Positions 3,717 to 63,092 of a DNA stretch of 64,000 bases are shown piece after piece. The notes beneath the pieces were generated by a model that made no database searches, was not told the DNA's origin, and saw nothing but the letters and a program-made list of their open reading frames with translations. The position numbers and the translations under genes were made by a program. Each line of letters starts with the position of its first letter. The first letter of the stretch is position 1. Source of the DNA: Escherichia phage DCP80. The stretch is taken from the sequence record PQ671644.1; one strand, given 5' to 3'.

Positions 3717-4201
3717 TGGCTGAAATTACAAATCCCGATGTTACCTTATACATCGGTTCTGAACTAACTGTTACTATCAAGGGCTCCCATGGGGCCTTTG
3801 GACGTAATGACGGTGAAACATATGGTTTAGAAAACGGTATAAATAAAATCAATACAGACAATCTGACACCAGGTGTTTACACGTTAGTTGATTATGCTGA
3901 TACAATTGAATTCACACGTTATGCTGTGAAATCTCCGTTCGGTAAACAATCTCAACTTGAACAAATTAAAGAAATGATTCGCGCAATCAGAGCTTGTTTG
4001 TTAGCACGTGTGAACGGTGATGATGCATATCTTCAAAGCATGGCTTCAGATGGTTATACATTTGCTTATGCTTCTGTCATGGAGCTTGAAGAATTGTTAT
4101 CTGCAAACGAACGCAGATTAGCAAGAGCCAAACAAGCAGATGACATTAAGAAAGGTAAATCACCTATGAGAACAATTAAAGCGAGGTTCCGTCATGCTTA
4201 A
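3716..4201 (+). CDS. Head-tail joining protein with a gpW-like C-terminal domain
   Basis: Sits between terminase and portal, as lambda W does. The C-terminal roughly 80 aa resemble the gpW pattern (QLEQIKEMIRAIRACLL..., ...VMELEELL). The N-terminal roughly 75 aa are extra. Confidence 0.45.
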   Translation: MAEITNPDVTLYIGSELTVTIKGSHGAFGRNDGETYGLENGINKINTDNLTPGVYTLVDYADTIEFTRYAVKSPFGKQSQLEQIKEMIRAIRACLLARVNGDDAYLQSMASDGYTFAYASVMELEELLSANERRLARAKQADDIKKGKSPMRTIKARFRHA

Positions 4202-5735
4202 TCCATTTAAAGTCTTCAAAAGAAATGGTATAAATAAAGCTATTAAAAAGAAACAACGTGATGAACAAAAATTACGAATCATCAACGATTCACCACGAAG
4301 TCAAATTCGTGCTCTGGCTGTACAGTCTTCACGTTTAACAGAAACATTTGAACAAGATATGATTCGCGGTTCTATTAACCCTGCGATTCGTCTTGGAAAT
4401 CAGGCTTTAATGGACCAGGCCCAAACAATGGCTGTACAATCTGTTTACGGTAAAAAAGCTGTTCAATACAGTATCGACCAGGTTGTTGGTGCAGAGGGAA
4501 TTCTGCCTATGCCGATTGTTATGAAAAATAAAGAACTTGATGAAGCACTGAACGATGAAATCAGTTATGAATTTGATAAGTGGGCACGTAAAGCTTCTAA
4601 ATTTTCAACCAACGGACAAATGAACTTCCGTCAATTCCAACAGCAAATGGAAGCATCAAGATTTATTTTTGGTGAAGCTTTTGCGATTATCGAAGAAGAT
4701 GATTATGGAATTCGTGTTGAGGTAATTTCTCCGCAACGTTGTCGAATGAATTATTCCGAAAAGACCAAAGAAGGTAACTATATCATCGATTCAATCGAGT
4801 ATACCCCTAGTGGTCGCCCTGTAGCTTATTATTTTGAAATTCTTGACGTAATGGCAAACGATTCCATCACTGGTAATAAATTCCGTGTTGATGCTGATGA
4901 TTGTTTCCACTATTTCAAACCAAACGTTCCAGGACAACGACGTGGGATTTCTGAATTCGCACCTGTTATTAAAGAGTTGAACCAGTTGGATGAATTTACG
5001 TTTTCTACAATCGTTCAAAAACGTATGGCTTCTAACAGCATGGGATTCATTACAACAGATGCAAACGGTCACGATTCAATTGATATTGAAATGGACGATG
5101 AAGCTGATGATGTTTATCAAGAGCCGGATATTATCCAAGAATTTGAAGCTGGTACGATGCACCAGTTAGCCGCTGGTCAAGACATTAAACAAATTACAGC
5201 AACACAAGGAGCTGATGATTATGTCGCGTTTAACTCCGCTATGGAATCAAAAATCGCAATGGGTTTTGGATTCTTTAAACAGGGTTTTCTTGGTGATACC
5301 AGTTCAATTAACTATTCCTCTGCTCGATTTGGTGATGCACAGCAACGTAATATGATTAAATCAACACAATCAACTTTGCGTGAATCTGTTCTGGAACCAT
5401 TATATGAGCGTTGGCTTGAGTGGATGTATATGCAAGGGAAATTGGTCAAATCAGACCGAATGGTTGAGTTTATTGCAGTTAATACAGATTGGATTTATCC
5501 TAAATCTGAGAGCATCGACCCAATGAAAGACCTTGATATCGAGATTAAAGCCGTTGAAGCTGGTATGCGCACCCGTCGTGATGCAATTACAAGACTTGGT
5601 GGTGACGATGTTGATGCAACTTTTGCTGGTATCGAAGCTGAACAAGGTTTACGCGTTCCGAAGAATGAACAACAGTTGGCTGCAGTATCTGCTCCTGCAG
5701 AAATCGCCGCCGGGGTCTCCGAAGAAGGTGTATAA
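4194..5735 (+). CDS. Portal protein, lambda gpB family
   Basis: 513 aa, immediately after the GpA and W-like genes. Blocks QRRGISEFAPVIKELNQLD and INYSSARFGDAQQRN...WLEW resemble lambda gpB. Confidence 0.85.
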   Translation: MLNPFKVFKRNGINKAIKKKQRDEQKLRIINDSPRSQIRALAVQSSRLTETFEQDMIRGSINPAIRLGNQALMDQAQTMAVQSVYGKKAVQYSIDQVVGAEGILPMPIVMKNKELDEALNDEISYEFDKWARKASKFSTNGQMNFRQFQQQMEASRFIFGEAFAIIEEDDYGIRVEVISPQRCRMNYSEKTKEGNYIIDSIEYTPSGRPVAYYFEILDVMANDSITGNKFRVDADDCFHYFKPNVPGQRRGISEFAPVIKELNQLDEFTFSTIVQKRMASNSMGFITTDANGHDSIDIEMDDEADDVYQEPDIIQEFEAGTMHQLAAGQDIKQITATQGADDYVAFNSAMESKIAMGFGFFKQGFLGDTSSINYSSARFGDAQQRNMIKSTQSTLRESVLEPLYERWLEWMYMQGKLVKSDRMVEFIAVNTDWIYPKSESIDPMKDLDIEIKAVEAGMRTRRDAITRLGGDDVDATFAGIEAEQGLRVPKNEQQLAAVSAPAEIAAGVSEEGV

Positions 5736-5738
5736 ATA
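5731..5738 (+). promoter_or_regulatory. T4-type late promoter TATAAATA
   Basis: Overlaps the portal stop codon, 50 nt upstream of the ATG at 5789. A hairpin at 5749-5768 follows. Confidence 0.6.
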
Positions 5739-5788
5739 AAGGTATAACGGGACTTCTAACGAGGTCCCAAAAAATAAGGACAAAAACA

Positions 5789-7789
5789 ATGTCGCAAACA
5801 ATCAGATTAAAACGTGAAATTTCTGTAGAGAAAATTCAGGCTGATGAAGACGGGATTTATGAAATTGCATTTTCTTCTGAAACCCCTGTTGAACGTCAGA
5901 TTGATACTCGTCACGGTCCACAAATTGTGAATGAAATTCTCATGCACACAGGTCCGGAAAACGCAGATTTAGAGCGTATAAATAATAATGCAAGCTTGCT
6001 GTTTAACCACAATTTCGACAACCATTTAGGTGTTGTTGTTCCTGGTTCAGTACGTATTGACAATGATAAAGTTGGCCGCGCTAAAGTAAAATTTTCAAGC
6101 GTTGGACAATTAGCACAAGAGATTAAAGCCAAGGTCGATGAAGGCACAATCTCAAAAATTTCGTTTGGATACGACATTAACGAGTATGATGTTGTTGGTG
6201 ATGACATGCTTGTTTCTCGTTGGGCACCATATGAAATTTCTTTCGTCACTGTCCCGGCAGATGATAAGGTTGGCCTCGGCCGCAGTATAAATAATATTGT
6301 AATTAACACAAATAAGGAAAAACGAATGAAACGTTACGAAGATTTTGAAATTGAAGACATCGTTGAACTGTCACGTGAAGAACTCGCTGATATGACAATC
6401 GCTGAAATCGAAGCCCTGGCTGAAGATGTACGTGCTAAGCGTGAAGAATTGCTTGACGAAGTTGAAGACGCTGAGAAAGAAGAAAAAGTTACCGATGAAG
6501 AAGATGCTGACTACGACAAAGCTGAAGGCAAAGATGCAGAAGCTAAAGTTGAAGATAAAAAAGCCGAAGGCATCGAAGACGAACTCACTGCTGAAGAGCG
6601 TGAAGAAGAAATCATCGAAATTGAAGAAATCGCTGAACGATACAAAATCGGTCGCGGAGAAGTTCGCAAAGCCATCGCAAGTGGCATGACTGCTCGTCAG
6701 TTCAAACGTTCTATTAAACCATCTAAAAACAAAAAGGAAATTCGTACTATGACTACCTCTATCGCTAAAGATACCCAGAAAAACCTCGAAGCTCGTTTTG
6801 ACCTGGCTGAAGTAACCCGTTCACTTGCTGCTGGTAAAGACATTAAAGGCGCTGCTGCTGAGTACTCTCAGGAAATGACTCGTAAACGTCAGAACGCAGG
6901 TCGTGACATTAACGGTCGTGCATATATCCCGGTAAGTGCTCTGCAAGGTCAGCGCGCAGTAAACACCGTTCCTACCGTTGCAAATATCGAACAGCACTAC
7001 GTTGATTACAACAGCTTTGTTGAATTGCTGCTCAAACCAACTGTAATTGGTAAACTGGGTGTTAACTTCCAGACCGGTCTGACCACTCCTTACGATGTAC
7101 CGAAACAAACTTCCAGCTCTGTTGATGCGTTTGGTTTCGTTGCTGAAAACGGTGACTCTCCTGAAGGCGAAAGCGGATTTGACATCATCAAATTCATGCC
7201 GCACACCTTTACTGGTGGTAACCCGATTTCTCGTCAGGCTCTTAACACCATGCCTAACCTGGCAAGCTTCATCTCTAACCACATCGTAGAACAATCTCGT
7301 TCTAAGATTCAAGGTCTGATGTTTGGTTCTGCTACTGACCCGGTTGCTTCTGGTGCTAACGCTCCGCAGAGCATCATCGCTCAGTTGGTTGCTAAGCAGA
7401 TTGGTATGACCTACAAAGAATTCGTTACCCTGGCTGCTGAAGCTGAAGGTAAAGGCGTTGCAATGGACCGCTTCAAGTATCTGATTGCTTCTGCACTTGG
7501 TGGTGAACTGAAATCCACTCTGCGTGATGCTGCTGTTGCTGGTTACATCATCGATGATGAAAACCGTATCGGTGGTCATGATGTAGTTACCTCTGGTCTG
7601 GTTAAACCTGGTCAGATTCTGTCTGGTGACTTCTCTGCAATCACTGTTGCTGAATGGGAAGGTCTGGCACTGGATATGGACGACACGACCTATCGTAACA
7701 AAGGCGCTATCGTTCCGCGTGTTTGGTGTGATATCGATTGGAAAGTTACTGCTGACGACCGTCTGTTCTTGTTCGAAAAGACAGCATAA
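5789..7789 (+). CDS. Single ORF fusing an HK97-type prohead protease, an acidic scaffold (delta-like) region and an HK97-fold major capsid protein
   Basis: The N-terminus has U35/S78 protease motifs (LLFNHNFDNHLG, ISFGY, YEISFVTVPAD). Residues about 180-320 are an E/D/K-rich coiled coil. The C-terminal roughly 345 aa are capsid-like with strong codon bias. Confidence 0.8.
   Translation: MSQTIRLKREISVEKIQADEDGIYEIAFSSETPVERQIDTRHGPQIVNEILMHTGPENADLERINNNASLLFNHNFDNHLGVVVPGSVRIDNDKVGRAKVKFSSVGQLAQEIKAKVDEGTISKISFGYDINEYDVVGDDMLVSRWAPYEISFVTVPADDKVGLGRSINNIVINTNKEKRMKRYEDFEIEDIVELSREELADMTIAEIEALAEDVRAKREELLDEVEDAEKEEKVTDEEDADYDKAEGKDAEAKVEDKKAEGIEDELTAEEREEEIIEIEEIAERYKIGRGEVRKAIASGMTARQFKRSIKPSKNKKEIRTMTTSIAKDTQKNLEARFDLAEVTRSLAAGKDIKGAAAEYSQEMTRKRQNAGRDINGRAYIPVSALQGQRAVNTVPTVANIEQHYVDYNSFVELLLKPTVIGKLGVNFQTGLTTPYDVPKQTSSSVDAFGFVAENGDSPEGESGFDIIKFMPHTFTGGNPISRQALNTMPNLASFISNHIVEQSRSKIQGLMFGSATDPVASGANAPQSIIAQLVAKQIGMTYKEFVTLAAEAEGKGVAMDRFKYLIASALGGELKSTLRDAAVAGYIIDDENRIGGHDVVTSGLVKPGQILSGDFSAITVAEWEGLALDMDDTTYRNKGAIVPRVWCDIDWKVTADDRLFLFEKTA
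6286..6293 (+). promoter_or_regulatory. Internal late promoter cassette inside the protease-capsid ORF
   Basis: tataaataatattgtaattaacacaaataaggaaa is nearly identical to the intergenic cassette at 13165 (tataaataatattgtaaattaaccccaaataaaaggaaa). It is followed by an SD and an in-frame ATG at 6326. Confidence 0.6.
6326..7789 (+). CDS. Nested in-frame product: scaffold(delta)-major capsid protein (487 aa)
   Basis: M180 of the long ORF is preceded by aaggaaaaacga and by the internal TATAAATA. This is analogous to the lambda C/Nu3 nested arrangement and to HK97 gp5 with its delta domain. Confidence 0.55.
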   Translation: MKRYEDFEIEDIVELSREELADMTIAEIEALAEDVRAKREELLDEVEDAEKEEKVTDEEDADYDKAEGKDAEAKVEDKKAEGIEDELTAEEREEEIIEIEEIAERYKIGRGEVRKAIASGMTARQFKRSIKPSKNKKEIRTMTTSIAKDTQKNLEARFDLAEVTRSLAAGKDIKGAAAEYSQEMTRKRQNAGRDINGRAYIPVSALQGQRAVNTVPTVANIEQHYVDYNSFVELLLKPTVIGKLGVNFQTGLTTPYDVPKQTSSSVDAFGFVAENGDSPEGESGFDIIKFMPHTFTGGNPISRQALNTMPNLASFISNHIVEQSRSKIQGLMFGSATDPVASGANAPQSIIAQLVAKQIGMTYKEFVTLAAEAEGKGVAMDRFKYLIASALGGELKSTLRDAAVAGYIIDDENRIGGHDVVTSGLVKPGQILSGDFSAITVAEWEGLALDMDDTTYRNKGAIVPRVWCDIDWKVTADDRLFLFEKTA

Positions 7790-10898: not shown

Positions 10899-13136
10899 AT
10901 GGCTGACGTACGCGCAAATTCAAAATTTAAATTTCGTAGGTCTCGTAACCCTGGTTATATCCCTAAAGCAGCAGACCTATTAGAAGGTGAACTGTTTATC
11001 AACGTTGCTGATAAAAAATTGTATACAAAAGATGAAGAAGGTGGCGTAATTATTGCTATTGGCGGTGGTTCAGGCGGCGGCGGTGGTGAATTAGGCGGTG
11101 GCGCAATTATCATTCGTCCGGAAGACGCAGTTAACAGCAGCGGCAACTTGATTCTTTCTACAACTAAAGTTGGTGAAGCTTCTTATGCTCGTGGTTTATC
11201 TGGTCTTAATATGAAAATGCAGCAATATATACCAACTGATTCAGACCCAATAAACGTTGACTCGCTTTATCTGGAGATTGGCTCCAAAACCCAACTCAAC
11301 GATGGAGCAGCCAACCCTTATGTTGAAATTCCCGGTAAATTGGCATTTGTTACATCTCGCGGAAACTCATCAGGCGTAACAACTGCATCACCTGGTGCAA
11401 CAGTAATAACTGCAAAACCTGGTGCAACATGGCACCGTGAATTTGGTACCCCTGTTGATGAATCAACACTAAAACTTGGCGACGGCACGGTCACGATTTC
11501 TTCAAAAGACATTATAATTGGTAAGAGCACATCAGATGTTTTTACAAAATCTATACAAAATAATATGGTTTATATTAACAGCCCAAATCTTATTTTAGGT
11601 GGTTCTGTTGACATTTCTGGATTAAAAACTTTAAACGGCGGCGCAACCTCAACAATTGATGTTGGTGCTTTAACTTCACAAGGTAACACAGTTGTTAAAG
11701 GTGACCTTTATGTTGAAGGTGAAATTATTTCTGGCTCCCCAACTCCAGGTCCAAAGCCTTTAGAAGACTTAGCTGGATTAAGTTTAAAATTAACATATGG
11801 TGCAACAGTTGGTACTAATATTGATGCTGGTGGTTATGTTCGTTTAAAAGACGAATTAACTGTTAAAGGTAAACAAAATACAACTGATTACGAATTTAGT
11901 ATCCAACATCGTAATCGTTCCGGTGAAGACTGGGAAGGTAACACAATTTTTTATTCAGAAACTTTCTTAAAATCAACTAATGATGTTTATTTTGTTTCAG
12001 AAATTAATGAATTTACAACTTCTGACCCAACTTATCAAAACATAAGAGCAGCTAATATCCGTGGTAGCAATGGTACCTTTAGTGGTAATTTAACTGGTTA
12101 TTATGGTGGATTCTTTGATAATAATATCACAATCAACGAAAACGGTATTAATTTAGCAAATGATTCTGGTTATTCACTTGGATTAAACTTCTTCAGTAAT
12201 AAATCTGTTGCAATCAGTCTGAAAACTGAAGCCGATGGTGCTGGTCTGGTAACCGATTATAATGCATCTTATACCAAGTTGAAAGATGATGAATTTGTTA
12301 TCGGTACCTCAATTGGTGATGGTTTTAAAGGTGTTACAATCAATAACGTTAAAGAGACAAACGCGGGCGTAACTGTTACTCCTTCCGTTTCTTCTACAAC
12401 TGTTAAACTGATTGAAGCTAACTATGGTAACTTTTCTCCATATATCAGTTCAACGTCCAACAGCATCACTATTGCACCTGATGAACAATCTAAAGTAACT
12501 TTTAGTAACACTGGTGTAGTATTTGGCCGTGAAGTTACAACTCCTGCTGTTCAATTAGGTCAGGCCAGGGTTGAGCAAACTGGTAACATCCTGGGTGGTA
12601 CATGGGGTGTAGACCTTAAGAGTTATATCAATAACCAGATTGCAAATGGATTTGTTAACGTTACAACCAACACTGTACAACTTCCTGATGCATTAATCAG
12701 TGCAGACGGTAACGTAACTGGTGGTATCTGGGGCACTGATAAGACTTTGAAAGAGTATATCGATGCTAATGCAGGCGGTGGCGGCGGTTCAGGTGGTCGT
12801 AAAGAAGCGGTTAAAGTTTGGACTGGTTCTGTATCCGGCGCGGCGAACACAAGCCCGATGACTATTACTTCTACAGAAGATGGTGACTTCCGTTGCGGTG
12901 GAAAGTTAATGCTTAAAGAATCATCTGGTGCTTGGTTAGAGTATGATTTTGATTGTCCAGATTCAGCATCACCTCCGGCTGGCACTGTTCAGTTTAACAG
13001 ACAAATCTTTTCTCAGAACACAGGCGCATCTGATATGATTCTTGCTCAGAACAGCATGTCCGGTACAAAAACTACATGGTCGCTTTACGGTCACGCTCGT
13101 AAAACATACACCGAAGCTTGGTGGCGTCCATACTGA
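10899..13136 (+). CDS. Tail fibre protein (745 aa)
   Basis: N-terminal fibre motif LLEGELFINVADKKLYTKDEEGGVI. Two Gly-rich linkers (GGGSGGGGGELGGG and AGGGGGSGG). A distinct C-terminal roughly 110-aa Cys-containing domain. Confidence 0.6.
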   Translation: MADVRANSKFKFRRSRNPGYIPKAADLLEGELFINVADKKLYTKDEEGGVIIAIGGGSGGGGGELGGGAIIIRPEDAVNSSGNLILSTTKVGEASYARGLSGLNMKMQQYIPTDSDPINVDSLYLEIGSKTQLNDGAANPYVEIPGKLAFVTSRGNSSGVTTASPGATVITAKPGATWHREFGTPVDESTLKLGDGTVTISSKDIIIGKSTSDVFTKSIQNNMVYINSPNLILGGSVDISGLKTLNGGATSTIDVGALTSQGNTVVKGDLYVEGEIISGSPTPGPKPLEDLAGLSLKLTYGATVGTNIDAGGYVRLKDELTVKGKQNTTDYEFSIQHRNRSGEDWEGNTIFYSETFLKSTNDVYFVSEINEFTTSDPTYQNIRAANIRGSNGTFSGNLTGYYGGFFDNNITINENGINLANDSGYSLGLNFFSNKSVAISLKTEADGAGLVTDYNASYTKLKDDEFVIGTSIGDGFKGVTINNVKETNAGVTVTPSVSSTTVKLIEANYGNFSPYISSTSNSITIAPDEQSKVTFSNTGVVFGREVTTPAVQLGQARVEQTGNILGGTWGVDLKSYINNQIANGFVNVTTNTVQLPDALISADGNVTGGIWGTDKTLKEYIDANAGGGGGSGGRKEAVKVWTGSVSGAANTSPMTITSTEDGDFRCGGKLMLKESSGAWLEYDFDCPDSASPPAGTVQFNRQIFSQNTGASDMILAQNSMSGTKTTWSLYGHARKTYTEAWWRPY

Positions 13137-13138
13137 TA

Positions 13139-13159
13139 GAAGGCCTTCGGGCCTTTTTC
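13139..13159 (+). terminator. C(UUCG)G hairpin plus T-run terminator
   Basis: aaggccttcgggccttttt. Confidence 0.7.
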
Positions 13160-13164
13160 AGCGT

Positions 13165-13172
13165 TATAAATA
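13165..13172 (+). promoter_or_regulatory. T4-type late promoter TATAAATA
   Basis: gTTATAAATAatattg lies 39 nt upstream of the ATG at 13211. Confidence 0.7.
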
Positions 13173-13210
13173 ATATTGTAAATTAACCCCAAATAAAAGG
13201 AAACTAAACA

Positions 13211-13705
13211 ATGTCTACATTTGATATTTTTGCAGGTTCGTATGTATCGGTTTTCATGACTGAAGACATCACTAACAAACTCCCGGCTTTCGCAGGTTAT
13301 AAATTTGTTCCAGAAACGGGTGCTTTCCCTGAATCCGGTTCAGAGCGTCAGGTAATCGATGTTCCTAACTACTCTGATAACTATAACCGTAAACTGGTTG
13401 GTCGTGGTTCTGTTCCGGCTATTGACCTTACTGTTAACTACAAAGCTGGCTCTATCCATGATACTCTTTCTAAATTGTCTGATGACGGTAAACGCTTCCA
13501 GATTAAAATTGTATACTGGATGGACGGTACTTATACTGATGGTATCGCAATCATCTATAATGGCTTCTTGAGTTCAGACCGTACAACTGGTTCTGATAGT
13601 TCTGCTGTTCAGAAAGTGTTTACGTTTGAAGTTGATGGTGGCCCGGTTGCTCGTGCTATCGTTACAGGCAGCGGTGAGAAACCTACCGAAGAGCCTATCG
13701 TTTAA
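13211..13705 (+). CDS. Major tail (tube) protein (164 aa)
   Basis: Lies immediately upstream of the chaperone pair and tape measure. Strong codon bias, own late promoter and terminator. Confidence 0.65.
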   Translation: MSTFDIFAGSYVSVFMTEDITNKLPAFAGYKFVPETGAFPESGSERQVIDVPNYSDNYNRKLVGRGSVPAIDLTVNYKAGSIHDTLSKLSDDGKRFQIKIVYWMDGTYTDGIAIIYNGFLSSDRTTGSDSSAVQKVFTFEVDGGPVARAIVTGSGEKPTEEPIV

Positions 13706-22958: not shown

Positions 22959-23426
22959 ATGAAAGCAATAGAGTACAAACATATGTTATACGAAAGACAA
23001 CATGGAATTTGTCTGCTATGTAAACTTCCGCTTGAAGATGTTAAAAGTTCCCATCTAGACCACGACCACGCTTTAACAGGTCCTAATGCTGGATTCTGCC
23101 GAGGACTTCTATGTCCTAGTTGTAACGTCTTGGAAGGAACTTTGCTGCATAAATTCAACAGAAGTGGATTAAAAAGTAAAACAACCTTTACAGCTTATCT
23201 TAATAACCTGCTATCTTATTATGCAAATCCACTGCATGAAAAGATACACCCTAATTTTATTAGAGATAAGGTGAAGGCTGTTTCACGGATGAGCAATCAA
23301 AGTATCATAGCTGAAATTGAAAAACTGACCTTTAACCTCCCAGCTGATAAGTCAAAGAAAGGACTTGTCAGTTTCTATCGTAAGGCTCTTAAGAAGTCCC
23401 TGGAGGACGTATGTCTGCAAAGTTAA
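22959..23426 (+). CDS. 49: Recombination endonuclease VII (T4 gp49 homologue)
   Basis: Matches the remembered T4 gp49 sequence: C..C....HLDHDH.LTGPNAG.CRGLLC..CN..EG, HKFNRSGLK and IHPNF. Confidence 0.88.
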   Translation: MKAIEYKHMLYERQHGICLLCKLPLEDVKSSHLDHDHALTGPNAGFCRGLLCPSCNVLEGTLLHKFNRSGLKSKTTFTAYLNNLLSYYANPLHEKIHPNFIRDKVKAVSRMSNQSIIAEIEKLTFNLPADKSKKGLVSFYRKALKKSLEDVCLQS

Positions 23427-24868: not shown

Positions 24869-25333
24869 ATGTCAGAAGCTTTTAACATGCTGATGAAAGA
24901 TGAAGGCATCGAGTATCATCTTTATAAATGCACGCAAGGATACTGGACAATCGGGATTGGTCATATGATTTCCCGTGATAAACAAACAGCTGAACGATTC
25001 CTTAATGAGAAATTTGGGAAGTGTGTAATAAGTAAGGAGCAGGCTATCCAGTTGTTCAAGCAAGATTATAATCATGCAGTATTAGGTGCACAGAGTATCG
25101 TAAGATTAGACACCTACCGTGAATTAGCATTGTCTAATATGGTTTTCCAGATGGGACTTGGTGGTGTACTGAAGTTCAAGAAAATGATAGCTGCACTGAA
25201 GATACAAGACTGGAACGAAGCTTATAAGCAGGCTTTAGATTCTACATGGTATAAACAAACACCTAATCGTGCCAAACGTGTGGCCGAGGTACTAAGAGAT
25301 GGGAAACAAGCATATGTCAAACATTACTCCTGA
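24869..25333 (+). CDS. e: Lysozyme (T4 gp e family endolysin)
   Basis: Aligns with T4 lysozyme: DEG....Y.....GY.TIGIGH, NMVFQMG and WY.QTPNRAKRV. Confidence 0.92.
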   Translation: MSEAFNMLMKDEGIEYHLYKCTQGYWTIGIGHMISRDKQTAERFLNEKFGKCVISKEQAIQLFKQDYNHAVLGAQSIVRLDTYRELALSNMVFQMGLGGVLKFKKMIAALKIQDWNEAYKQALDSTWYKQTPNRAKRVAEVLRDGKQAYVKHYS

Positions 25334-26932: not shown

Positions 26933-26947
26933 GCGTTTTCATACTTT

Positions 26948-26955
26948 TATTTATA
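26948..26955 (-). promoter_or_regulatory. T4-type late promoter TATAAATA
   Basis: The reverse complement reads gTTATAAATAaaagtatgaaaac, 58 nt upstream of the start at 26890. Confidence 0.7.
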
Positions 26956-26969
26956 ACAGCTTTTCGGGC

Positions 26970-27152
26970 TTATTCAGAAGTCAGAATAAATTTTTGATAC
27001 TGTTTACCAGTTATCTTGTATCTGATGAAGTTGAACAAATCGAACAAATATCCAAGAGGAATCAGAGCAATCAGAAGTGGTGCCATGATGAACATCAGGA
27101 TTGCTTGGATAACAAACAGAATTGTTTCACCCAGAAATTTTAAAATAAACAT
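26970..27152 (-). CDS. Small membrane protein (60 aa, 2 predicted TM)
   Basis: Hydrophobic ILFVIQAILMFIMAPLLIALIPLGYLF. Confidence 0.5.
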   Translation of the reverse strand: MFILKFLGETILFVIQAILMFIMAPLLIALIPLGYLFDLFNFIRYKITGKQYQKFILTSE

Positions 27153-27164
27153 AGTTCTCCCGTT

Positions 27165-27178
27165 GGGGCCGAAGCCCC
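27165..27178 (-). terminator. C(UUCG)G hairpin (intercistronic)
   Basis: Plus strand ggggccgaagcccc. Confidence 0.45.
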
Positions 27179-27185
27179 AGATAAG

Positions 27186-27350
27186 TTAGCGAATTGATTT
27201 TTGTTCTTTAGCGCGATTCTTAATACCAAGTCCTTGCATCGTGGCTTCGATAACCTCGATTGCTTTAACACGTTTTTCATACTCTGCCAGAGTGATTTGT
27301 TTTTTGGCGAATTGTACATAAAGGGCAGACATAGCTTCGTAACTGTTCAT
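27186..27350 (-). CDS. Hypothetical protein (54 aa)
   Basis: Start moved to M18 of the track ORF. The longer ORF would run through its own promoter and leader. Confidence 0.45.
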   Translation of the reverse strand: MNSYEAMSALYVQFAKKQITLAEYEKRVKAIEVIEATMQGLGIKNRAKEQKSIR

Positions 27351-27368
27351 AGGATTTCTCTTTAAAGG

Positions 27369-27390
27369 GAGACACCGGAATTGATGTCTC
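27369..27390 (-). promoter_or_regulatory. Conserved 5'-leader hairpin, copy B
   Basis: mRNA gagaca-tcaattccgg-tgtctc, downstream of TATAAATAAATGTATGAAAAC. Confidence 0.5.
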
Positions 27391-27406
27391 GTTGTTTTCA
27401 TACATT

Positions 27407-27414
27407 TATTTATA
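27407..27414 (-). promoter_or_regulatory. T4-type late promoter TATAAATA
   Basis: The reverse complement reads gTTATAAATAaatgtatgaaaac. Confidence 0.7.
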
Positions 27415-27422
27415 ACGGTCTT

Positions 27423-27713
27423 TTAACGCTTTTTAAAACCACCGAAGAAGGTGCCAGATAATGATTGAGCGATTTTAGAAGCTTCATAGTTGTTTGATTC
27501 AACTTCACCATACTTCCAACCTTTACCAAGGAGTTTCAACCATTTCAATCTAGCGATTGTCACATCATGACCTGCGCAAAGGAGTTCAAATTCTTCCAGT
27601 TCATCATTAAGTAGATAAGCAAGTTTTTCTTTATCCACAGCGTATGTCCAATTGGTACCTTCGAATTCGAAGAAAACTGAATCACCGTGGGTTTCTACAT
27701 TTTTAATCTTCAT
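27423..27713 (-). CDS. Hypothetical protein (96 aa)
   Basis: ORF, start/stop-coupled to the upstream gene. Confidence 0.5.
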   Translation of the reverse strand: MKIKNVETHGDSVFFEFEGTNWTYAVDKEKLAYLLNDELEEFELLCAGHDVTIARLKWLKLLGKGWKYGEVESNNYEASKIAQSLSGTFFGGFKKR

Positions 27714-27904
27714 TAGATTTCCTTTACAATAAATTTATAAGTTACTTGGGACTCTTTAAAGACAGCTTCCGTTGCCCATTCTTCAGGTTTTTTCGAAAGC
27801 TCTGTGTGATAAAGCATTGCAGCTTCACCCTCTTGTGCTTCCAAAGCTTCTATGTAGCTTCGGCCTTCTTTAAGTTTAATAACACCGCAATCTATGATTC
27901 TCAT
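27713..27904 (-). CDS. Hypothetical protein (63 aa)
   Basis: ORF with ATGA overlap with the upstream small ORF. Confidence 0.5.
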   Translation of the reverse strand: MRIIDCGVIKLKEGRSYIEALEAQEGEAAMLYHTELSKKPEEWATEAVFKESQVTYKFIVKEI

Positions 27905-28050
27905 TTCTTGTCCAGTAGTTGTTGGTAAAATTCGATATGAGCATAAACATCTTGAATCCCGTGTAGGTAATCATCAAAGGTGATGTCCAGGTCTTCAAAG
28001 AAGTTATGATAAATTTCTTGTAGTTTGGTATAACCGTTTTCGTTAGTCAT
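27901..28050 (-). CDS. Hypothetical small protein (49 aa)
   Basis: ATG 26 nt downstream of the TATAAATA at 28076, with SD cgagg. Below the track cutoff. Confidence 0.4.
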   Translation of the reverse strand: MTNENGYTKLQEIYHNFFEDLDITFDDYLHGIQDVYAHIEFYQQLLDKK

Positions 28051-28075
28051 AAGTACCTCGTTGTTTTCATAATTT

Positions 28076-28083
28076 TATTTATA
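28076..28083 (-). promoter_or_regulatory. T4-type late promoter TATAAATA
   Basis: The reverse complement reads agTATAAATAaaattatgaaaac. Confidence 0.65.
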
Positions 28084-28087
28084 CTGA

Positions 28088-28216
28088 TTAATACTGGTTT
28101 AAATGGCGCCACAACGTGGTTCTGGATATACTATGTTTCTTCAGAACAGATTTCTTATCTTTACGACGAGCATTTTTATACTCGTCTGCAATTTGATTTA
28201 ACTTCTCGTTGGTCAT
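28088..28216 (-). CDS. Possible small HTH protein (42 aa)
   Basis: TAATG-coupled to the upstream ORF. Contains SISRTTLWRHL, an HTH-like segment. Confidence 0.3.
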   Translation of the reverse strand: MTNEKLNQIADEYKNARRKDKKSVLKKHSISRTTLWRHLNQY

Positions 28217-28947
28217 TAAAATTTTACGCATAACAGGTTGTCCAGTTGGTCTTCATGGGTTTCGATTAAGATTTCAGATTCCAGAGCTTCAGCAGCCTGA
28301 ATCATTGTGGCAGTATCACCACCAGCTTTAGCAACGTGAATCACAGTATCGAATTTACGTTTGTAAAGATTTTTCAGTTTAACTTCTTTAGTTTTCTGTG
28401 CAAAGTGTTTTTCAGATTTACGTTTAACTTCAACCAGTTCTTCTTTAACAACTTCAACTTCTTCTTCAGCTTCCTGGATAGCAACGTTTGCTTTCTTCAG
28501 AGCAGCATGTTGTGCACGAATGATTTCCATCATTTCTTCCACAGATAATTCCTCAAGATTGTTGATGTCAAATTTGACAACTTCTTTCTTTTCAACATGG
28601 TGATTAGAATTAACGGTATCGATTTCGTAAATCCAAGTTTTGTCACCGCGACGAGTCATTTCCAGGTTCTGCTGGATATAACCTTTACCTACTTTGTGAA
28701 TCACACGAGCTGAATTCCAATCAGTATGAACTACACAGATTGAATTTTCAAATTCTGCAACAAAGTAATCTCCCTCACCAAAATCAACTGCTTTAGCTTT
28801 AACTGCACGATACAGAGAACGATTAGCTGAACCAATTTCTTGTAACAAAGATTTAACAGAACTAGCATGAATTACTTTGGTTGCATTTTGTACAGACATG
28901 TTGCTTTCAGCTTGGTTTTCGCATTTTTTAAAAAGTTTGATAATCAT
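28216..28947 (-). CDS. Hypothetical protein with an acidic coiled-coil centre (243 aa)
   Basis: ORF with SD aaggaaa. Confidence 0.55.
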   Translation of the reverse strand: MIIKLFKKCENQAESNMSVQNATKVIHASSVKSLLQEIGSANRSLYRAVKAKAVDFGEGDYFVAEFENSICVVHTDWNSARVIHKVGKGYIQQNLEMTRRGDKTWIYEIDTVNSNHHVEKKEVVKFDINNLEELSVEEMMEIIRAQHAALKKANVAIQEAEEEVEVVKEELVEVKRKSEKHFAQKTKEVKLKNLYKRKFDTVIHVAKAGGDTATMIQAAEALESEILIETHEDQLDNLLCVKF

Positions 28948-28986
28948 GTGTTTTCCTTTATTTGTTAATCGTGTTATTATTTAGAA

Positions 28987-29136
28987 TTAAAAAGTGATGT
29001 GTAATTCTTTGTTGATTTCAAAGATGACAGTTGCTAATGTCAAGTTGTGTTCTTTACACCAATCAGCACGTTTAGCCGGTGGCAATTTGTTTAACGCACA
29101 GAAGATTTTCATTAATTTAATCTGATAAGAATTCAT
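28987..29136 (-). CDS. Hypothetical small protein (49 aa)
   Basis: ATG with SD gaggt, 73 nt downstream of the TATAAATA at 29209. Confidence 0.35.
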   Translation of the reverse strand: MNSYQIKLMKIFCALNKLPPAKRADWCKEHNLTLATVIFEINKELHITF

Positions 29137-29208
29137 GGTGACCTCAAGTGTTTCGATGTTTGTTAGGGTTTAAAAAAGAGGTTGTTCACCTCGTCGCTTT
29201 CATACATT

Positions 29209-29216
29209 TATTTATA
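29209..29216 (-). promoter_or_regulatory. T4-type late promoter TATAAATA
   Basis: The reverse complement reads gtgTATAAATAaatgtatgaaagc. Confidence 0.65.
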
Positions 29217-29225
29217 CACTAATTT

Positions 29226-29750
29226 TCGGCTCATTAGACAATCAGAAAAGTTCAATCCGGATTCAATCGCGTCAGGAGAATTTCCATGATAATATTTATC
29301 TCTTTATACTCACAAAAAACATTGAAACACATTTTGCAGTTTTTGGACTTTTAATCAAAAAAGGCTGTTTTTGATATTTCCGGGGGGTGCCTATGCCTTC
29401 CGGAGCACTTTTTGAGGCAAAAGTTATAAGAAACCTATTTTAATATATCAAAAGGTAATAACAAAGGCCTTTTTTCCCTCAAAAAACGTCAGAAAAAGGC
29501 TGTTTTTTCAGCTTATTTTGAGCCTTTTTTGAAGGTTCATTTTTGGGACTTTTAATCAAAAAACAAGGGAATTTTTCGGGAGCAGTACAGGGGTACTATC
29601 AGATGATAGGAGCTATCATTTAGAAGGGAGAATTGTGATTACTTATGACCGTTATACGATTGTATCGCGATTATTTGGTCAAATAACGACGAAATAATCA
29701 AAATAAATCATCGAAACACTTAGAAAACAGGCTGTTTTAGGTATAAAAAT
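29226..29750. repeat. ORF-free roughly 525-bp region with dispersed repeats
   Basis: ggacttttaatcaaaaaa occurs at 29345-29362 and 29546-29563. aaaa(a/c)aggctgtttt occurs at 29358, 29493 and 29724. T/A-tract rich. Confidence 0.8.
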
Positions 29751-29766
29751 GGCCCCTTTCGGAGCC
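29751..29766 (-). terminator. Hairpin plus T-run terminator (minus strand)
   Basis: mRNA ggctccgaaaggggcc followed by attttt, 7 nt after the stop at 29773. Confidence 0.6.
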
Positions 29767-29772
29767 TAAAAT

Positions 29773-29940
29773 TTATTTCATACGCAGGTATTTTTCATAA
29801 CTAACTTTTGACAGAGCCAAATAGTAAGCTGCATCTTTTTCTCCCGATAATTTACCTTCAGCAACTGTTGCACAATCTTCTTTGAAAGTTGCTTCCCAGG
29901 AAAATCCATCAAGCCAATCGGAAAATTGTTGTTCGTTCAT
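29773..29940 (-). CDS. Hypothetical protein (55 aa)
   Basis: Start moved to M14 (SD gaggt), adjacent to the stop of the upstream ORF. Confidence 0.45.
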   Translation of the reverse strand: MNEQQFSDWLDGFSWEATFKEDCATVAEGKLSGEKDAAYYLALSKVSYEKYLRMK

Positions 29941-29941
29941 A

Positions 29942-30148
29942 TTAACCTCTGTAATGTCTGTTGTAATGGTGTACTGCAATTTCTGTGCAAAGGTCTTCGA
30001 AGACCAATGGGATTATGTTTTCTCGGTAGACAACATAACTGTACTGTCTGTAGGTGTAGACCTCTTTATATTTCTCGAAGAACATAAACAGGTCTTGATT
30101 AGCTGTAACTTCTAACGGGGTGATTTTCCCGGCTGCATCAACTATCAT
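29942..30148 (-). CDS. Hypothetical protein (68 aa)
   Basis: ORF with SD aaggagg. Confidence 0.5.
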   Translation of the reverse strand: MIVDAAGKITPLEVTANQDLFMFFEKYKEVYTYRQYSYVVYRENIIPLVFEDLCTEIAVHHYNRHYRG

Positions 30149-30288
30149 ACTTCCTCCTTATTAACTTAATAATAGGCTCCCGCTCAGAAACCTATGATAA
30201 GGTACCACACATGAATTTAATCAAAGGTCTTCACATCACTAAAGACCTTTTGTTAAACACATGAATCAGGTCATCACTCCTGATACTT

Positions 30289-30606
30289 TTATTTATAACG
30301 GGATTTATTCATCCATTCAAATATGCCAGGGTTCCATTCGATGTTACCCATCGCTACATAATGATTGATTGCTTCTCGCAGAGACACCTGGAAGAATTCG
30401 GATTCGTCAAGTAATGAAACAATGATTTCCCCTTGTGCCTGTAAATCATCAACTGTCATCATGGAAAGAATTTCATATGCTGATTGAATTTCGTCTTCTG
30501 TGAAATCTGTGTCGAACCAATCATTAAGGTTATCATCAGATTTGTAATTATTGTAATAAGCCATACCTTCGATAACCAGATTGATAATTTCATTTACGTT
30601 GTTCAT
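30289..30606 (-). CDS. Hypothetical acidic protein (105 aa)
   Basis: Start moved to M55 of the track ORF. The longer ORF crosses the N gap and the promoter. Confidence 0.55.
   Translation of the reverse strand: MNNVNEIINLVIEGMAYYNNYKSDDNLNDWFDTDFTEDEIQSAYEILSMMTVDDLQAQGEIIVSLLDESEFFQVSLREAINHYVAMGNIEWNPGIFEWMNKSRYK
30290..30297 (-). promoter_or_regulatory. T4-type late promoter TATAAATA overlapping the upstream gene's stop
   Basis: The reverse complement reads cgTTATAAATAaaagtat. Confidence 0.55.
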
Positions 30607-30710
30607 AATTTTCTCTTTGTGTTTGGTTGATATGATAATGATACACCCTTTTGATGAGGTTGTAAACCCCTTATTGCAAATACATCTGGCATTGAAACAA
30701 ATAAATGCCA
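30600..30710. repeat. Second copy of the 111-nt repeat (identical to 1..111)
   Basis: See the feature at 1..111. Confidence 0.95.
30638..30666 (-). promoter_or_regulatory. T4-early-type sigma70 promoter
   Basis: ggTTTACA-17nt-TATCAT. The architecture is nearly the same as the promoter at 59314-59342 (ggtttaca.c..ca..aaaagggtgta..attatc). Confidence 0.6.
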
Positions 30711-30720
30711 NNNNNNNNNN
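30711..30720. other. Assembly gap (N10)
   Basis: Run of n. Confidence 1.
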
Positions 30721-40993: not shown

Positions 40994-41040
40994 NNNNNNN
41001 NNNNNNNNNNNNNNNNNNNNNNNNNNNNNNNNNNNNNNNN
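40994..41040. other. Assembly gap (N47)
   Basis: Run of n. Confidence 1.
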
Positions 41041-49790: not shown

Positions 49791-49800
49791 NNNNNNNNNN
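49791..49800. other. Assembly gap (N10)
   Basis: Run of n. Confidence 1.
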
Positions 49801-56742: not shown

Positions 56743-56760
56743 NNNNNNNNNNNNNNNNNN
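56743..56760. other. Assembly gap (N18)
   Basis: Run of n. Confidence 1.
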
Positions 56761-62652: not shown

Positions 62653-63092
62653 CAGTTAATACCTTGGCGTGCTTTCTCTTTAGCTACACATTTATTAATA
62701 TAGCTCAGACGGTTTTGAGCAGAACGCTGATACATATCACGATACTCATTAGCTTTTGGAGAACCCGTCTCCGCTGCCTGATAAGCTTCCGCGCGCATGA
62801 TGTTTATCTGCATATTGATGTATGACATGCAGACCTGCGAAATCTGGTTAACAGTATCCAGGTCATTTTGTCGCTTGGTTTCTGCTNNNNNNNNNNNNNN
62901 NNNNNNNNNNNNNNNNNNNNNNNNNNNNNNNNNNNNNNNNAGATTGGTTGCAAGACTGTGCTCACCAACAAGCCATAATGAGTATGTTTGAACATCCAGA
63001 CCATAATTTCTGTCTTTATGAACTCGTACACCCATTACTTCAAATTGTTCACTCGCCTTTTCTACTGCATCCAGGAAATCATCTTTAGTCAT
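62652..63092 (-). CDS. Hypothetical protein interrupted by the N54 gap (could be two gene fragments)
   Basis: The frame stays open across 54 N. The N-terminal part MTKDDFLDAVEKASEQFE... starts at M5 of the track ORF. Confidence 0.35.
   Translation of the reverse strand: MTKDDFLDAVEKASEQFEVMGVRVHKDRNYGLDVQTYSLWLVGEHSLATNXXXXXXXXXXXXXXXXXXXAETKRQNDLDTVNQISQVCMSYINMQINIMRAEAYQAAETGSPKANEYRDMYQRSAQNRLSYINKCVAKEKARQGIN
62887..62940. other. Assembly gap (N54)
   Basis: Run of n. Confidence 1.

Follow-up and report, generated by a model that had tools for sequence, protein, structure and literature searches.

In phage λ, an in-frame internal start within the protease gene C yields a shorter, 3'-coterminal assembly protein, Nu3, and the C-terminal part shared by the two products targets the protease into the procapsid (bioRxiv 10.64898/2026.09.13.751334). 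A comparable arrangement is found in herpes simplex virus (HSV), where the scaffold gene UL26.5 lies in frame within the protease gene UL26 and the two are 3'-coterminal. UL26.5 has its own promoter, located inside the protease coding sequence, and its product is made in excess. In the archaeal tailed virus HFTV1 (gp17/gp17.5), Ribo-seq and mass spectrometry identified an in-frame internal start in the prohead protease gene from which excess scaffold is made. Phage HK97 encodes its protease, gp4, and its capsid protein, gp5, in separate adjacent genes.

The window analyzed here, a 64,000-nt stretch of Escherichia phage DCP80 (accession no. PQ671644.1), carries a locus that shares with HK97 the S78 protease family, the capsid fold and a scaffold that forms the N-terminal domain of the capsid protein. 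Unlike in HK97, however, no stop codon separates the two parts, so that the protease is available only in fused form. The fused gene sits on a 30.6-kb contig, and the neighboring contigs are T4-like. An earlier examination of the letters alone (the sequence-only reading) had let its finding begin at 5731; that position is an upstream TATAAATA overlapping the portal stop codon, and the ORF starts at 5789. Its features are as follows:

5789..7789, plus strand: full-length ORF of 666 aa, consisting of protease, linker, scaffold and capsid protein (translation, Pfam, PHROG, homologues, model)
5776..5780, plus strand: Shine-Dalgarno (SD) sequence AAGGA of the full-length ORF (sequence; anti-SD duplex of -5.9 kcal/mol)
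5789..6253, plus strand: prohead protease domain (Peptidase_S78), residues 1-155 (Pfam PF04586, model)
6254..6331, plus strand: disordered inter-domain linker, residues 156-181, which also holds the putative promoter/RBS cassette (pLDDT <50)
6332..6718, plus strand: acidic helical scaffold (delta-like) region, residues 182-310 (E/D-rich; modeled helices 188-308)
6767..7786, plus strand: HK97-fold capsid domain, residues 327-666 (Pfam PF05065, model)

The existence of a 666-codon ORF with an S78 protease, an acidic scaffold region and a capsid domain, as first proposed, is confirmed by Pfam, PHROG 617 and an AlphaFold model. Peptidase_S78 (PF04586) matches residues 57-159 with 36.1 bits (gathering score 21) and Phage_capsid (PF05065) matches with 41.2 bits (gathering score 24.2); these are the only Pfam families reported for the protein. 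PHROG 617 aligns residues 7-654 with profile positions 9-613 of 626 (E 6.7e-74), and as a single ORF aligned end to end with the fused profile it is a member of this fused protease-scaffold-capsid family. The model shows a beta-rich protease fold at residues 1-155 (pLDDT 75-90), disorder at 156-181, helices at 182-310, disorder at 311-326 and, from 327 to 666, a capsid fold of mixed helix and sheet (pLDDT 70-90). In the protease domain H74, H79 and S125 are invariant across 31 homologues; the catalytic His and Ser are presumably among them, by analogy with HK97 gp4. The three-part architecture is common to the fused genes of PHROG 617 and 4523. Fused phages matched at 27-32% identity are Jilinvirus ECO1230-10, PT1 and HeidiAbel, Hapunavirus VP882, Rhodobacter RcCronus and Xanthomonas Murka; no cultured member with >35% identity was found in the clade of the window. 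The same architecture is seen in actinophage genes annotated as "capsid and protease fusion."

Within the linker lies a cassette that resembles an intergenic one elsewhere in the window:

6286..6293, plus strand: internal TATAAATA (candidate promoter P2), which spans the codons xTA AAT Axx
6314..6318, plus strand: internal SD sequence AAGGA, 7 nt before the ATG
6326..7789, plus strand: nested in-frame ORF of 487 aa, scaffold plus capsid protein (in-frame ATG, conserved Met)
13165..13213, plus strand: intergenic reference cassette with TATAAATA, leader, AAGGA (13197-13201) and the tube-gene ATG
13142..13158, plus strand: intrinsic terminator GGCC-TTCG-GGCC plus T5, ahead of the tube-gene cassette (repeat family D4)

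The gene 3' of the intergenic cassette encodes the major tail (tube) protein (phrog_158, E 2.3e-12), and the terminator ahead of it folds with -11.2 kcal/mol (z -2.35). The sequence-only reading had called the two cassettes nearly identical. Indeed, TATAAATAATATTGTAA is the same at 6286-6302 and 13165-13181, and a gapped alignment runs on through TTAAC, CAAAT and AAGGAAA, with 34/35 aligned bases and 4 gap positions. The alignment scores 48, compared with a best match of 24.5 +/- 2.3 (maximum 31) in 60 simulated genomes, and within the genome the 6286-6326 cassette is by far the best match to that of the tube gene. With TATAAATA held fixed, the downstream part scores 32, versus 10-20 at the other 15 TATAAATA sites. 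ATG 6326 shares the frame of the ORF from 5789, and the intergenic copy does contain the extra A that had been noticed, GTAAATTAAC reading GTA AAT TAA in the corresponding frame.

The hairpin ggcctcggcc, which had been counted into the cassette, is not part of the promoter/RBS element. Its predicted fold is weak (-6.8 kcal/mol, z -0.65; 49/200 shuffles at least as good), and the sequence lacks a T run and encodes a conserved G-L-G-R, for which relatives use other codons that cannot pair. The internal SD duplex, at -6.2 kcal/mol, ranks second among the 14 in-frame Met codons scored for the stop-to-stop ORF, annotated start included. By folding, the leader is unstructured, and the whole cassette falls inside the linker of pLDDT <50. 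The 42 nt from the G-L-G-R codons to ATG 6326 are 81% A+T; the coding frame is free of stops there, and the other two contain 2 and 3. Two further signals occur in the ORF:

6749..6751, plus strand: another conserved in-frame ATG (M321), where scaffold meets capsid, preceded by AAGGA at 6734-6738
5977..5984, plus strand: intragenic TATAAATA in the protease domain, encoding an invariant R-I-N-N

The M321 codon, within the second disordered segment (311-326) of the model, might be a further nested start, although this is uncertain. We judge the TATAAATA at 5977..5984 to be a chance occurrence: the hexamer is not kept in relatives, because R-I-N-N is written there with ATT, ATC or CTG.

Since one more A would give an in-frame TAA, like that of the intergenic copy, the sequence-only reading had also considered that a single-base homopolymer error had joined two separate genes. 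Such an error, a missing A at 6300-6302, is refuted by independent assemblies and by fused homologues. In four such assemblies, L085 (SRR10874826), L086 (SRR14573573) and L087 and L088 (SRR27732226/9), the locus is a single ORF with the two-A run retained (GTAATTAAC or GTAATCAAC), and L085 also retains the three-A run ahead of the tube gene. Comparison with homologous loci, which that reading had suggested, found fusion in nearly all of them. Among the matches listed of 2,129, every homologue is 634-669 aa long and has both Pfam domains; of the closest relatives among cluster representatives at 50% identity, almost all have 560-700 aa. One long ORF is present in nearly all of 88 related loci, the short ORFs being cut by a contig end or truncated copies. 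Moreover, the fused ORF persists in relatives with wholly different linker sequences. Across 17 lineages the linker is 62-81% A+T; almost every off-frame contains 1-5 stops, the coding frame none. The probability of such an open frame is 0.08-0.35 per lineage, and the summed log10 is -13.7. An assembly or sequencing artefact is thus scarcely credible, and these comparisons show the fusion to be genuine, ancestral and, to judge from the open linkers, held open by selection.

The cassette recurs to about 29% protein identity, being carried by the window lineage, the Klebsiella/Enterobacter-type loci L001-L013, an E. coli group (L014-L041 plus L089) and L067-L073. The order is conserved: TAAATA is followed, over 32, 35, 56, 59 or 65 nt, by AAGGA, GGAGG or GAGGA and an in-frame ATG. 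The linker TAAATA is conserved in all Group A lineages. In L067-L073 it lies 13 codons farther from G-L-G-R, yet is 32 nt from the ATG. The codon ahead of AAT is ATA, TTA or CTA in 13/13 representatives, versus a gene-wide xTA share of 18% for Leu codons and 3.5% for Ile codons. The residues encoded by the motif vary (I/L, then T/I/N/K), and adjacent synonymous sites are saturated. A control R-[I/L]-N-N, invariant in the protease domain, is written with ATT, ATC, CTG, CTA and ATA codons. The internal SD ranks first to fourth among the 10-19 in-frame Met codons scored per ORF, and first to third in all lineages except one. These patterns show that the hexamer TAAATA, the SD and the ATG are conserved at the DNA level, the hexamer through the use of rare xTA codons.

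A possible source of the likeness between the two cassettes is recent recombination or gene conversion that copied the tube cassette into the linker, as a passenger in one lineage only. The extended identity (17/17, then TTAAC) does score 32 in the window lineage as opposed to 10-20 in most relatives, with L004 intermediate at 28. However, the core signals date back to the ancestor of the whole clade, and the closest outgroups of the window lineage were not found to lack the cassette. Moreover, a 94% relative in which three cassette positions have diverged still keeps TATAAATA, AAGGA and the ATG. We therefore regard recent copying as very unlikely; gene conversion may explain the extra similarity to the tube cassette, not the element itself.

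A plain fusion, in which every capsid subunit is made from ATG 5789 together with a protease and scaffold of its own, is a more serious alternative. The TAAATA, SD and ATG of the linker would then be unused leftovers of an ancestral protease/capsid intergenic region, or would be there because the protein requires them, for example as a cleavage site or tether. The relatives of Group B, a sister clade (L042-L066, L079-80), have no ATG, SD or motif in the linker, and a nested start is therefore dispensable for fused capsid genes; L038 lacks the internal ATG. The actinophage genes, too, are annotated as simple fusions. Asn168 is invariant among homologues, so some protein-level constraint on the motif is possible, and the internal Met is conserved as K/R-M-K-R. 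Against this, unused leftovers should decay, but the motif has fixed synonymous third positions next to saturated neighbors, although its residues change, and the control R-I/L-N-N has no such codon fixation. In addition, the 32-nt gap to the ATG is held even where the motif has shifted relative to the protease end, and the SD is among the best of the internal Met codons in nearly every lineage. On balance we consider a plain fusion unlikely.

The same signals could instead serve translation only, with ATG 6326 an internal start on the long mRNA and TAAATA kept for some other reason than as a promoter. In the distant cultured fused relatives VP882 (M185) and the Jilinvirus phages (M217), too, an SD and ATG mark the scaffold start, and L081 has AAGGAG and an ATG in a linker from which TAAATA is absent. 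However, TAAATA itself is fixed at the codon level and, in every relative, the hexamer lies behind terminators, strictly tied to orientation. In addition, its flanking bases tend to co-vary with the intergenic copies of each genome: 5' of the hexamer, in internal and intergenic copies, the window lineage has TA; C predominates in L004, L010 and the E. coli group, and A/T in L002, L003 and L011. A purely translational role is, in our estimation, decidedly unlikely.

The view that TAAATA is a promoter also draws on its distribution. Ahead of late genes, every relative has a terminator hairpin, then TAAATA, SD and ATG. The TATAAATA sequence is matched 8/8 at 16 sites, all in gene orientation, without a -35 element and just upstream of structural genes; sigma-70-type sites are not in excess (15 found versus 22 expected). 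The TAAATA:TATTTA counts in contig 1 are 15:1 where genes lie on the plus strand and 0:7 where they lie on the minus strand (expected ~20 and ~15), and they are 19:2 in the late region of the E. coli element. The bare hexamer has about the density in coding sequence that composition predicts, neither rarer nor commoner, which also suits a plain fusion; the promoter argument therefore rests on positional and codon-level conservation. The label "late" for the cassette is one that we infer from position only.

TATAAATA is the T4 late promoter consensus (PMC3121705). The TATAAATA sites resemble T4 late promoters in the 8/8 match, the lack of a -35 element, the location upstream of structural genes and the strict orientation, while relatives have CTAAATA or ATAAATA instead. 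Recognition of T4-type late promoters depends on gp55, together with gp33 and the gp45 clamp. No PHROG or Pfam match to gp55, gp33 or another sigma factor was obtained among 20 contig-1 proteins scanned, no gp55-like or other sigma gene was seen among 10 proteins scanned in the E. coli relative, and gp55 is absent from the 64-kb window. Homologues of gp45 and gp44 occur only on the neighboring T4-like contigs. It is conceivable, if improbable, that these are T4-type late promoters served by gp55, gp33 and gp45 from elsewhere, and that the elements are virion-encoding parasites of gp55-bearing phages. In that event the prophage-like relatives in E. coli, Klebsiella and Enterobacter, like the 30.6-kb contig itself, would exploit T4-like (or other gp55-bearing) phages, borrowing the helper's late transcription and perhaps replication, while setting their own capsid stoichiometry by a promoter embedded in a coding linker.

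Upstream of the full-length start are two more elements:

5731..5738, plus strand: TATAAATA over the portal stop codon; candidate promoter P1, from which the full-length ORF may be transcribed
5749..5768, plus strand: stable GC-rich hairpin, downstream of P1 and upstream of the full-length start (folding, shuffles)

TAAATA is present just past the portal stop in most relatives, matching the position of P1. The hairpin folds with -13.6 kcal/mol (z -4.2; 0/200 shuffles as good), and a hairpin of different sequence takes its place in L086, L002, L004, L006-8, L010, L011, the E. coli group and L038. It could be an attenuator or a 5' stabilizer, and may lower expression of the long form.

We consider it probable, from the conservation described above, that the fused ORF is also two nested, in-frame, 3'-coterminal genes, the short one expressed from an internal promoter and ATG 6326. 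Translation from ATG 5789 gives the 666-aa fusion, the sole route to the protease, which it tethers to the interior face of a capsid subunit. The linker TATAAATA at 6286 would fire as a promoter and, through the unstructured leader, the SD at 6314 and ATG 6326, direct synthesis of a 487-aa scaffold-capsid precursor like HK97 gp5, whose layout is that of the predicted short product. Long and short forms would co-assemble via their common capsid domain, and the tethered protease would then cleave off protease, linker and scaffold. The short form is proposed to be the more abundant product; any excess of it would be transcriptional, because the two SD sites are similar in strength. The cassette specifically resembles that of the tube, the other most abundant virion protein. 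A second, protease-free precursor, if made, would explain how fused genes set the protease-to-capsid ratio.

The λ C/Nu3-like nesting suggested by the sequence-only reading is supported by comparison, through the TAAATA, SD and in-frame ATG that are conserved at the DNA level. Its hairpin does not belong to the element, and its term "read-through" is wrong because the long form has its own start at an upstream ATG. For fused protease-scaffold-capsid genes, the literature searched yielded no description of a nested product or an internal promoter. The DCP80 gene shares with C/Nu3 an in-frame internal start with an RBS at the scaffold start (AAGGA, ATG 6326; Group A). However, in λ the scaffold Nu3 is free and the capsid protein comes from a separate gene, E, whereas the part shared by the two DCP80 products includes the capsid protein. 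The protease λ C belongs to another family than S78, and Nu3 is not known to have a promoter of its own. The fused gene would work like C/Nu3 without being a member of that system, having an S78 protease and a scaffold fused to the capsid domain. HFTV1 differs in relying on translational control only and in encoding its capsid protein in a gene apart. For the internal promoter, by analogy, UL26/UL26.5 is the closer comparison: as a candidate promoter, the linker motif is conserved at the DNA level and is identical to intergenic promoter-like sites. HSV nonetheless infects eukaryotes, its promoter is of an unrelated type, and its capsid protein VP5 is separate. We conclude that the DCP80 gene probably represents a new variation on the nested protease/scaffold theme of λ C/Nu3 and HSV UL26/UL26.5.

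The fused gene spans 5789-7789 and encodes 666 aa. Both of its Pfam domains exceed their cut-offs (Peptidase_S78 with 36.1 bits, Phage_capsid with 41.2), residues 7-654 align with PHROG 617 ("major head protein"), and an AlphaFold model (mean pLDDT 73, from 31 homologues) has five segments. The single 666-codon protease-scaffold-capsid ORF recognized by the sequence-only reading is borne out by all of these, but not its start: position 5731 is a copy of the 8-mer TATAAATA that overlaps the portal stop codon.

Features of the fused gene and its linker cassette (segments from the AlphaFold model)
Residues 1-155: protease domain, beta-rich
Residues 156-181: first disordered segment (the linker), pLDDT about 28
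Residues 188-308: helices in an E/D-rich stretch (the scaffold)
Residues 311-326: second disordered segment
From residue 327: capsid-type fold
6286, plus strand: TATAAATA, which contains the core hexamer TAAATA
6314, plus strand: AAGGA
6326, plus strand: in-frame ATG

Before the tube gene (the major tail gene) stands an intergenic copy of this cassette with one A more, as had been noted, and in the coding frame it would read GTA AAT TAA. A homopolymer error joining two genes was one explanation offered for the fusion. It is contradicted by independent assemblies from at least three sequencing projects, in which related loci L085 (98% identity) and L086-L088 (94%) have the same two-A run and single ORF as the window; the three-A run before the tube gene is also present in L085. 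Comparison with homologous loci, likewise proposed earlier, found one long ORF in nearly all of 88 related loci, the few short ones being cut at contig ends or truncated copies. Of 2,129 hits, the 120 homologues listed all have 634-669 aa and both domains. Among 50%-identity cluster representatives nearly every one of the nearest relatives measures 560-700 aa; capsid proteins without the fusion turn up only near 25% identity, and no stop-separated protease and capsid genes were seen in close relatives. Moreover, across 17 lineages the linker is 62-81% A+T, with one to five stops in almost every off-frame and none in frame. In-frame openness has a chance of 0.08-0.35 per lineage, and the summed log10 of -13.7 overstates the independence of the lineages but is still, in our judgment, decisive. 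We regard a sequencing error as vanishingly improbable. The open linker, the lack of a stop codon belonging to the protease part, and the absence of variation at protease residues H74, H79 and S125 among homologues show the long fusion to be a selected, functional product.

The cassette falls wholly within the first disordered segment. Megablast of the fused gene against cultured phages gave no match, and since a genome-collection scan returned only four distant loci, the comparison set consists of IMG/VR loci, Logan contigs and one RefSeq E. coli region. In the loci that share the cassette (Group A), it lies 3' of VPADDxVGLGR in the order TAAATA, then AAGGA, GGAGG or GAGGA, and an in-frame ATG, with 32, 35, 56, 59 or 65 nt following the hexamer; the ATG is absent from L038.

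Carriers of the linker cassette
Window lineage
L001-L013: Klebsiella/Enterobacter-type loci
L014-L041 and L089: E. coli/Shigella group
L067-L073: metagenomic group, about 29% identical

In the metagenomic group the hexamer is 13 codons further from G-L-G-R, yet 32 nt separate it from the ATG, as in the window and E. coli. Fused sister loci at 30-35% identity (Group B; L042-L066, L079-80) provide a natural negative control: their linker is acidic and has neither ATG, SD nor motif. Within Group A the hexamer is read xTA AAT Axx. All 13 representatives begin it with ATA, TTA or CTA, although gene-wide xTA accounts for only 18% of the Leu codons and 3.5% of the Ile codons, and its Asn is written AAT without exception (gene-wide, 49%). 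The residues it encodes change (I/L, then T/I/N/K), and synonymous sites nearby are saturated. As a control, the protein-invariant R-[I/L]-N-N of the protease domain uses ATT, ATC, CTG, CTA and ATA; given these varying codons, the TATAAATA copy at 5977, considered as a promoter, was judged a lineage-specific chance occurrence. The SD of the conserved Met ranks first to fourth (first to third but for one lineage) among 10-19 in-frame Met per ORF, a set that may include the annotated start. We take this pattern to show that the linker doubles as a disordered tether and as the site of promoter-like, SD and ATG signals that are constrained as DNA. A plain fusion, in which those signals are unused relics, is favored by Group B and contradicted by the codon evidence; we hold it to be unlikely.

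A comparable arrangement was seen in the linker of L081 (8370-8520; Methylophilus MAG, 24% identity), where an in-frame hairpin of canonical terminator-like form, CCCGCGAAAGCGGG plus T6, is followed by AAGGAG and ATG. It is an independent instance of intergenic-type signals within an open frame.

The near-identity of the linker and tube-gene cassettes also stood. Aligned with 13165-13213, which precedes the major tail gene (phrog_158), the linker copy agrees at 34 of the 35 bases aligned, four further positions being gaps, for a score of 48; in 60 simulated genomes the best matches reached 31 at most, with a mean of 24.5 +/- 2.3. Once TATAAATA is fixed, the part 3' of the motif scores 32, compared with 10-20 for the 15 other TATAAATA sites. 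This strong likeness is confined to the window lineage and L004, a distribution for which gene conversion may be considered as a contributor; it is also consistent with similarly high expression of the two virion proteins that are most abundant. That the linker cassette is a recent passenger copied from the tube gene would suit so narrow a likeness, while the cassette itself is found across Group A, and we think this very unlikely. The leader between the internal motif and ATG 6326 is unstructured. The "hairpin" ggcctcggcc (6272-6281) of the sequence-only reading did not hold up: it is no better than shuffles (z -0.65), has no T run and is not conserved. It encodes the conserved G-L-G-R, for which relatives use codons unable to pair.

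The 8-mer TATAAATA is the T4 late-promoter consensus (PMC3121705). In every relative, the late-gene intergenic regions have a terminator hairpin, then TAAATA, SD and ATG. The bases 5' of the hexamer tend to agree between internal and intergenic copies within each genome, with TA in the window lineage, a predominance of C in L004, L010 and E. coli, and a predominance of A/T in L002, L003 and L011. Sigma-70-type sites show no excess in the region.

Hexamer and 8-mer occurrences (contig 1 is 1-30710)
Contig 1, plus-strand genes: TAAATA 15, TATTTA 1 (expected from composition, 20.6 and 15.3)
Contig 1, minus-strand genes: TAAATA 0, TATTTA 7
E. coli element, late region: TAAATA 19, TATTTA 2 (expected from composition, 14.9 and 11.4)
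Contig 1, TATAAATA, plus strand: 1260, 3838, 4229, 5731, 5977, 6286, 7931, 10595, 13165, 13736, 18212
Contig 1, TATAAATA, minus strand: 26948, 27407, 28076, 29209, 30290

All 16 copies of the 8-mer in contig 1 are in gene orientation and none is antisense. The density of the sense-strand hexamer in coding DNA is roughly as composition predicts; what is unusual is its near absence from the antisense strand, its intergenic enrichment and its fixed position in the linker. An internal translation start with no promoter would fit VP882 and Jilinvirus, where an SD and ATG likewise mark the scaffold start; beside the constrained codons of the hexamer, we find it distinctly unlikely.

Other occurrences of these motifs were noted. 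The TATAAATA copies at 3838-3845 (head-tail joining gene) and 4229-4236 (start of the portal gene) are intragenic, each preceded by gg, and retained in the 94% relative; either could act as an internal promoter of downstream genes. The five minus-strand sites (26935-30306) have in common a longer motif, gtTATAAATAAAWGTATGAAAACRACGAG, which reaches about 20 nt into the transcribed region and would form a second, putative promoter/leader class. Over the T4-like contigs (30721-64000, 33 kb of early/replication genes) there are four TAAATA and no TATTTA, where the composition estimate made for contig 1 gives well over 10 of each; late-promoter-like hexamers thus seem to be avoided in this stretch.

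On balance we favor a reading in which the fused gene yields two 3'-coterminal products, the shorter through the promoter-like motif, SD and ATG in the linker. A 74-kDa fusion initiated at ATG 5789 would carry the protease into the shell, as its protease part belongs to a capsid subunit whose N-terminal scaffold would face inward as in HK97. A 54-kDa scaffold-capsid precursor would be initiated at ATG 6326, on mRNAs from the internal promoter and on the long mRNA. SD strengths are alike for the long (-5.9 kcal/mol) and short forms (-6.2 kcal/mol), so transcription would, speculatively, have to account for any excess of the short form. Between the TATAAATA at the portal stop codon and the long-form start lies a very stable hairpin (5749-5768; -13.6 kcal/mol, z -4.2), and most Group A lineages have a hairpin of other sequence at the equivalent place. 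This order, promoter then hairpin, is the opposite of that in other intergenic regions; as a speculation, the long mRNA could be attenuated or processed at this hairpin.

A second conserved in-frame Met, Met321 (ATG 6749), has AAGGA upstream (together 6734-6751); it belongs to the second disordered segment, where scaffold and capsid meet. The window lineage, the E. coli group, L067-71 and Group B all have the pair, which is absent from L002-L012. For the E. coli group and Group B the Lys codon there is invariably AAG, against a gene-wide AAA:AAG of 594:123 (about 5-fold). It may be a further nested start yielding scaffold-free capsid protein, or a protein motif near the maturation cleavage site.

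The window is a chain of contigs divided by N runs (30711-30720, 40994-41040, 49791-49800, 56743-56760, 62887-62940). The two ends of contig 1 share the same 111 nt, which means a circular genome of about 30.6 kb or else a contig that broke at a repeat. Near its junction we observed short direct repeats, namely TACATCTGGCATTGAAACAAATAAATGCCAAATG three times (82-115, 202-235, 30681-30714) and a 68-nt repeat pair (700-767 and 849-916), which could be origin or packaging-site repeats. Contig 1 encodes a lambda-type terminase with a Nu1-like small subunit, a portal and siphovirus-type tail genes. Set in this lambda/HK97-like background are three T-even-like modules (22959-23426, 24869-25333, 10899-13136): a T4-type endonuclease VII that includes the T4 dimerisation domain, a T4-lysozyme-like gene (150 nt of it have 70% DNA identity to gene e of Aeh1) and a tail-fibre protein whose N-terminus is gp37-like. 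In distant blastn of 22.4-30.4 kb against cultured phages, that 150-nt lysozyme stretch of T4-like Aeh1 was the sole match. No replication, integrase or sigma gene was recognized in the contig 1 ORFs scanned, no gp55-like or other sigma gene and no gp33 homologue turned up among the proteins scanned in contig 1 and the E. coli relative, and tblastn of the contig 1 non-structural ORFs against all loci gave no conserved regulator. Contigs 2-6 carry T4-like rIIA/rIIB, topoisomerase II, gp46/47, gp45, gp44, gp41 and UvsX; with rIIA/rIIB present twice in opposite orientation, they are probably two strains or a bin. Gene 55 is absent from the T4-like contigs within the window.

The relatives are elements of about 30-35 kb. 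The E. coli element occurs in 49 of 5,426 complete genomes, always in the chromosome, at about 34 kb and 42% GC (flank, 49%), with almost no annotated non-structural functions. One of them, in L089 (NZ_CP122634.1, 2,737,626-2,779,622), lies at 2,738-2,772 kb in strain ETEC4085, is inserted in hicB and adjoins a large serine recombinase, with no replication or sigma gene recognized; RefSeq annotates its 27270-28052 as a "receptor-recognizing protein". T4-consensus sites on an element with no visible gp55 allow that this family may borrow gp55-type late transcription from a T4-like helper. The literature searched held no T4-dependent satellite of this kind, and helper dependence of such a lambda/HK97-like element, if true, would outweigh our main finding.

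Fused protease-scaffold-capsid genes are common: they fill hundreds of clusters at 50% identity and occur in many cultured phages. They raise the question of whether each of several hundred capsid subunits carries its own protease. If the internal promoter and start are true, at least one large clade would make mostly protease-free precursor and a minority of tethered protease, and a disordered linker could also serve as an intergenic control region. Annotation is affected as well, since one called gene is probably two products.

The three-part fusion is already well known, from PHROG 617 and 4523, from genes labelled "major capsid protein and protease" and from the actinophage "capsid and protease fusion". 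The capsid gene here has at most 35% identity to any cultured phage. The literature searched reports no internal promoter or nested scaffold-capsid product for fused capsid genes. The sequence-only reading had proposed a lambda C/Nu3-like nested system. Its logic fits the comparison, with signals conserved as DNA, and the same nesting of protease and scaffold is found in herpes simplex virus UL26/UL26.5 and in archaeal virus HFTV1 gp17/17.5; UL26.5, a gene inside UL26, has its own promoter. The fused gene belongs to none of the lambda, HSV or HFTV1 families: its protease is S78, where that of lambda is of the C type, and its scaffold is joined to the capsid protein. If our reading is true, the logic of lambda and the herpesviruses would have been reached here by a third route.
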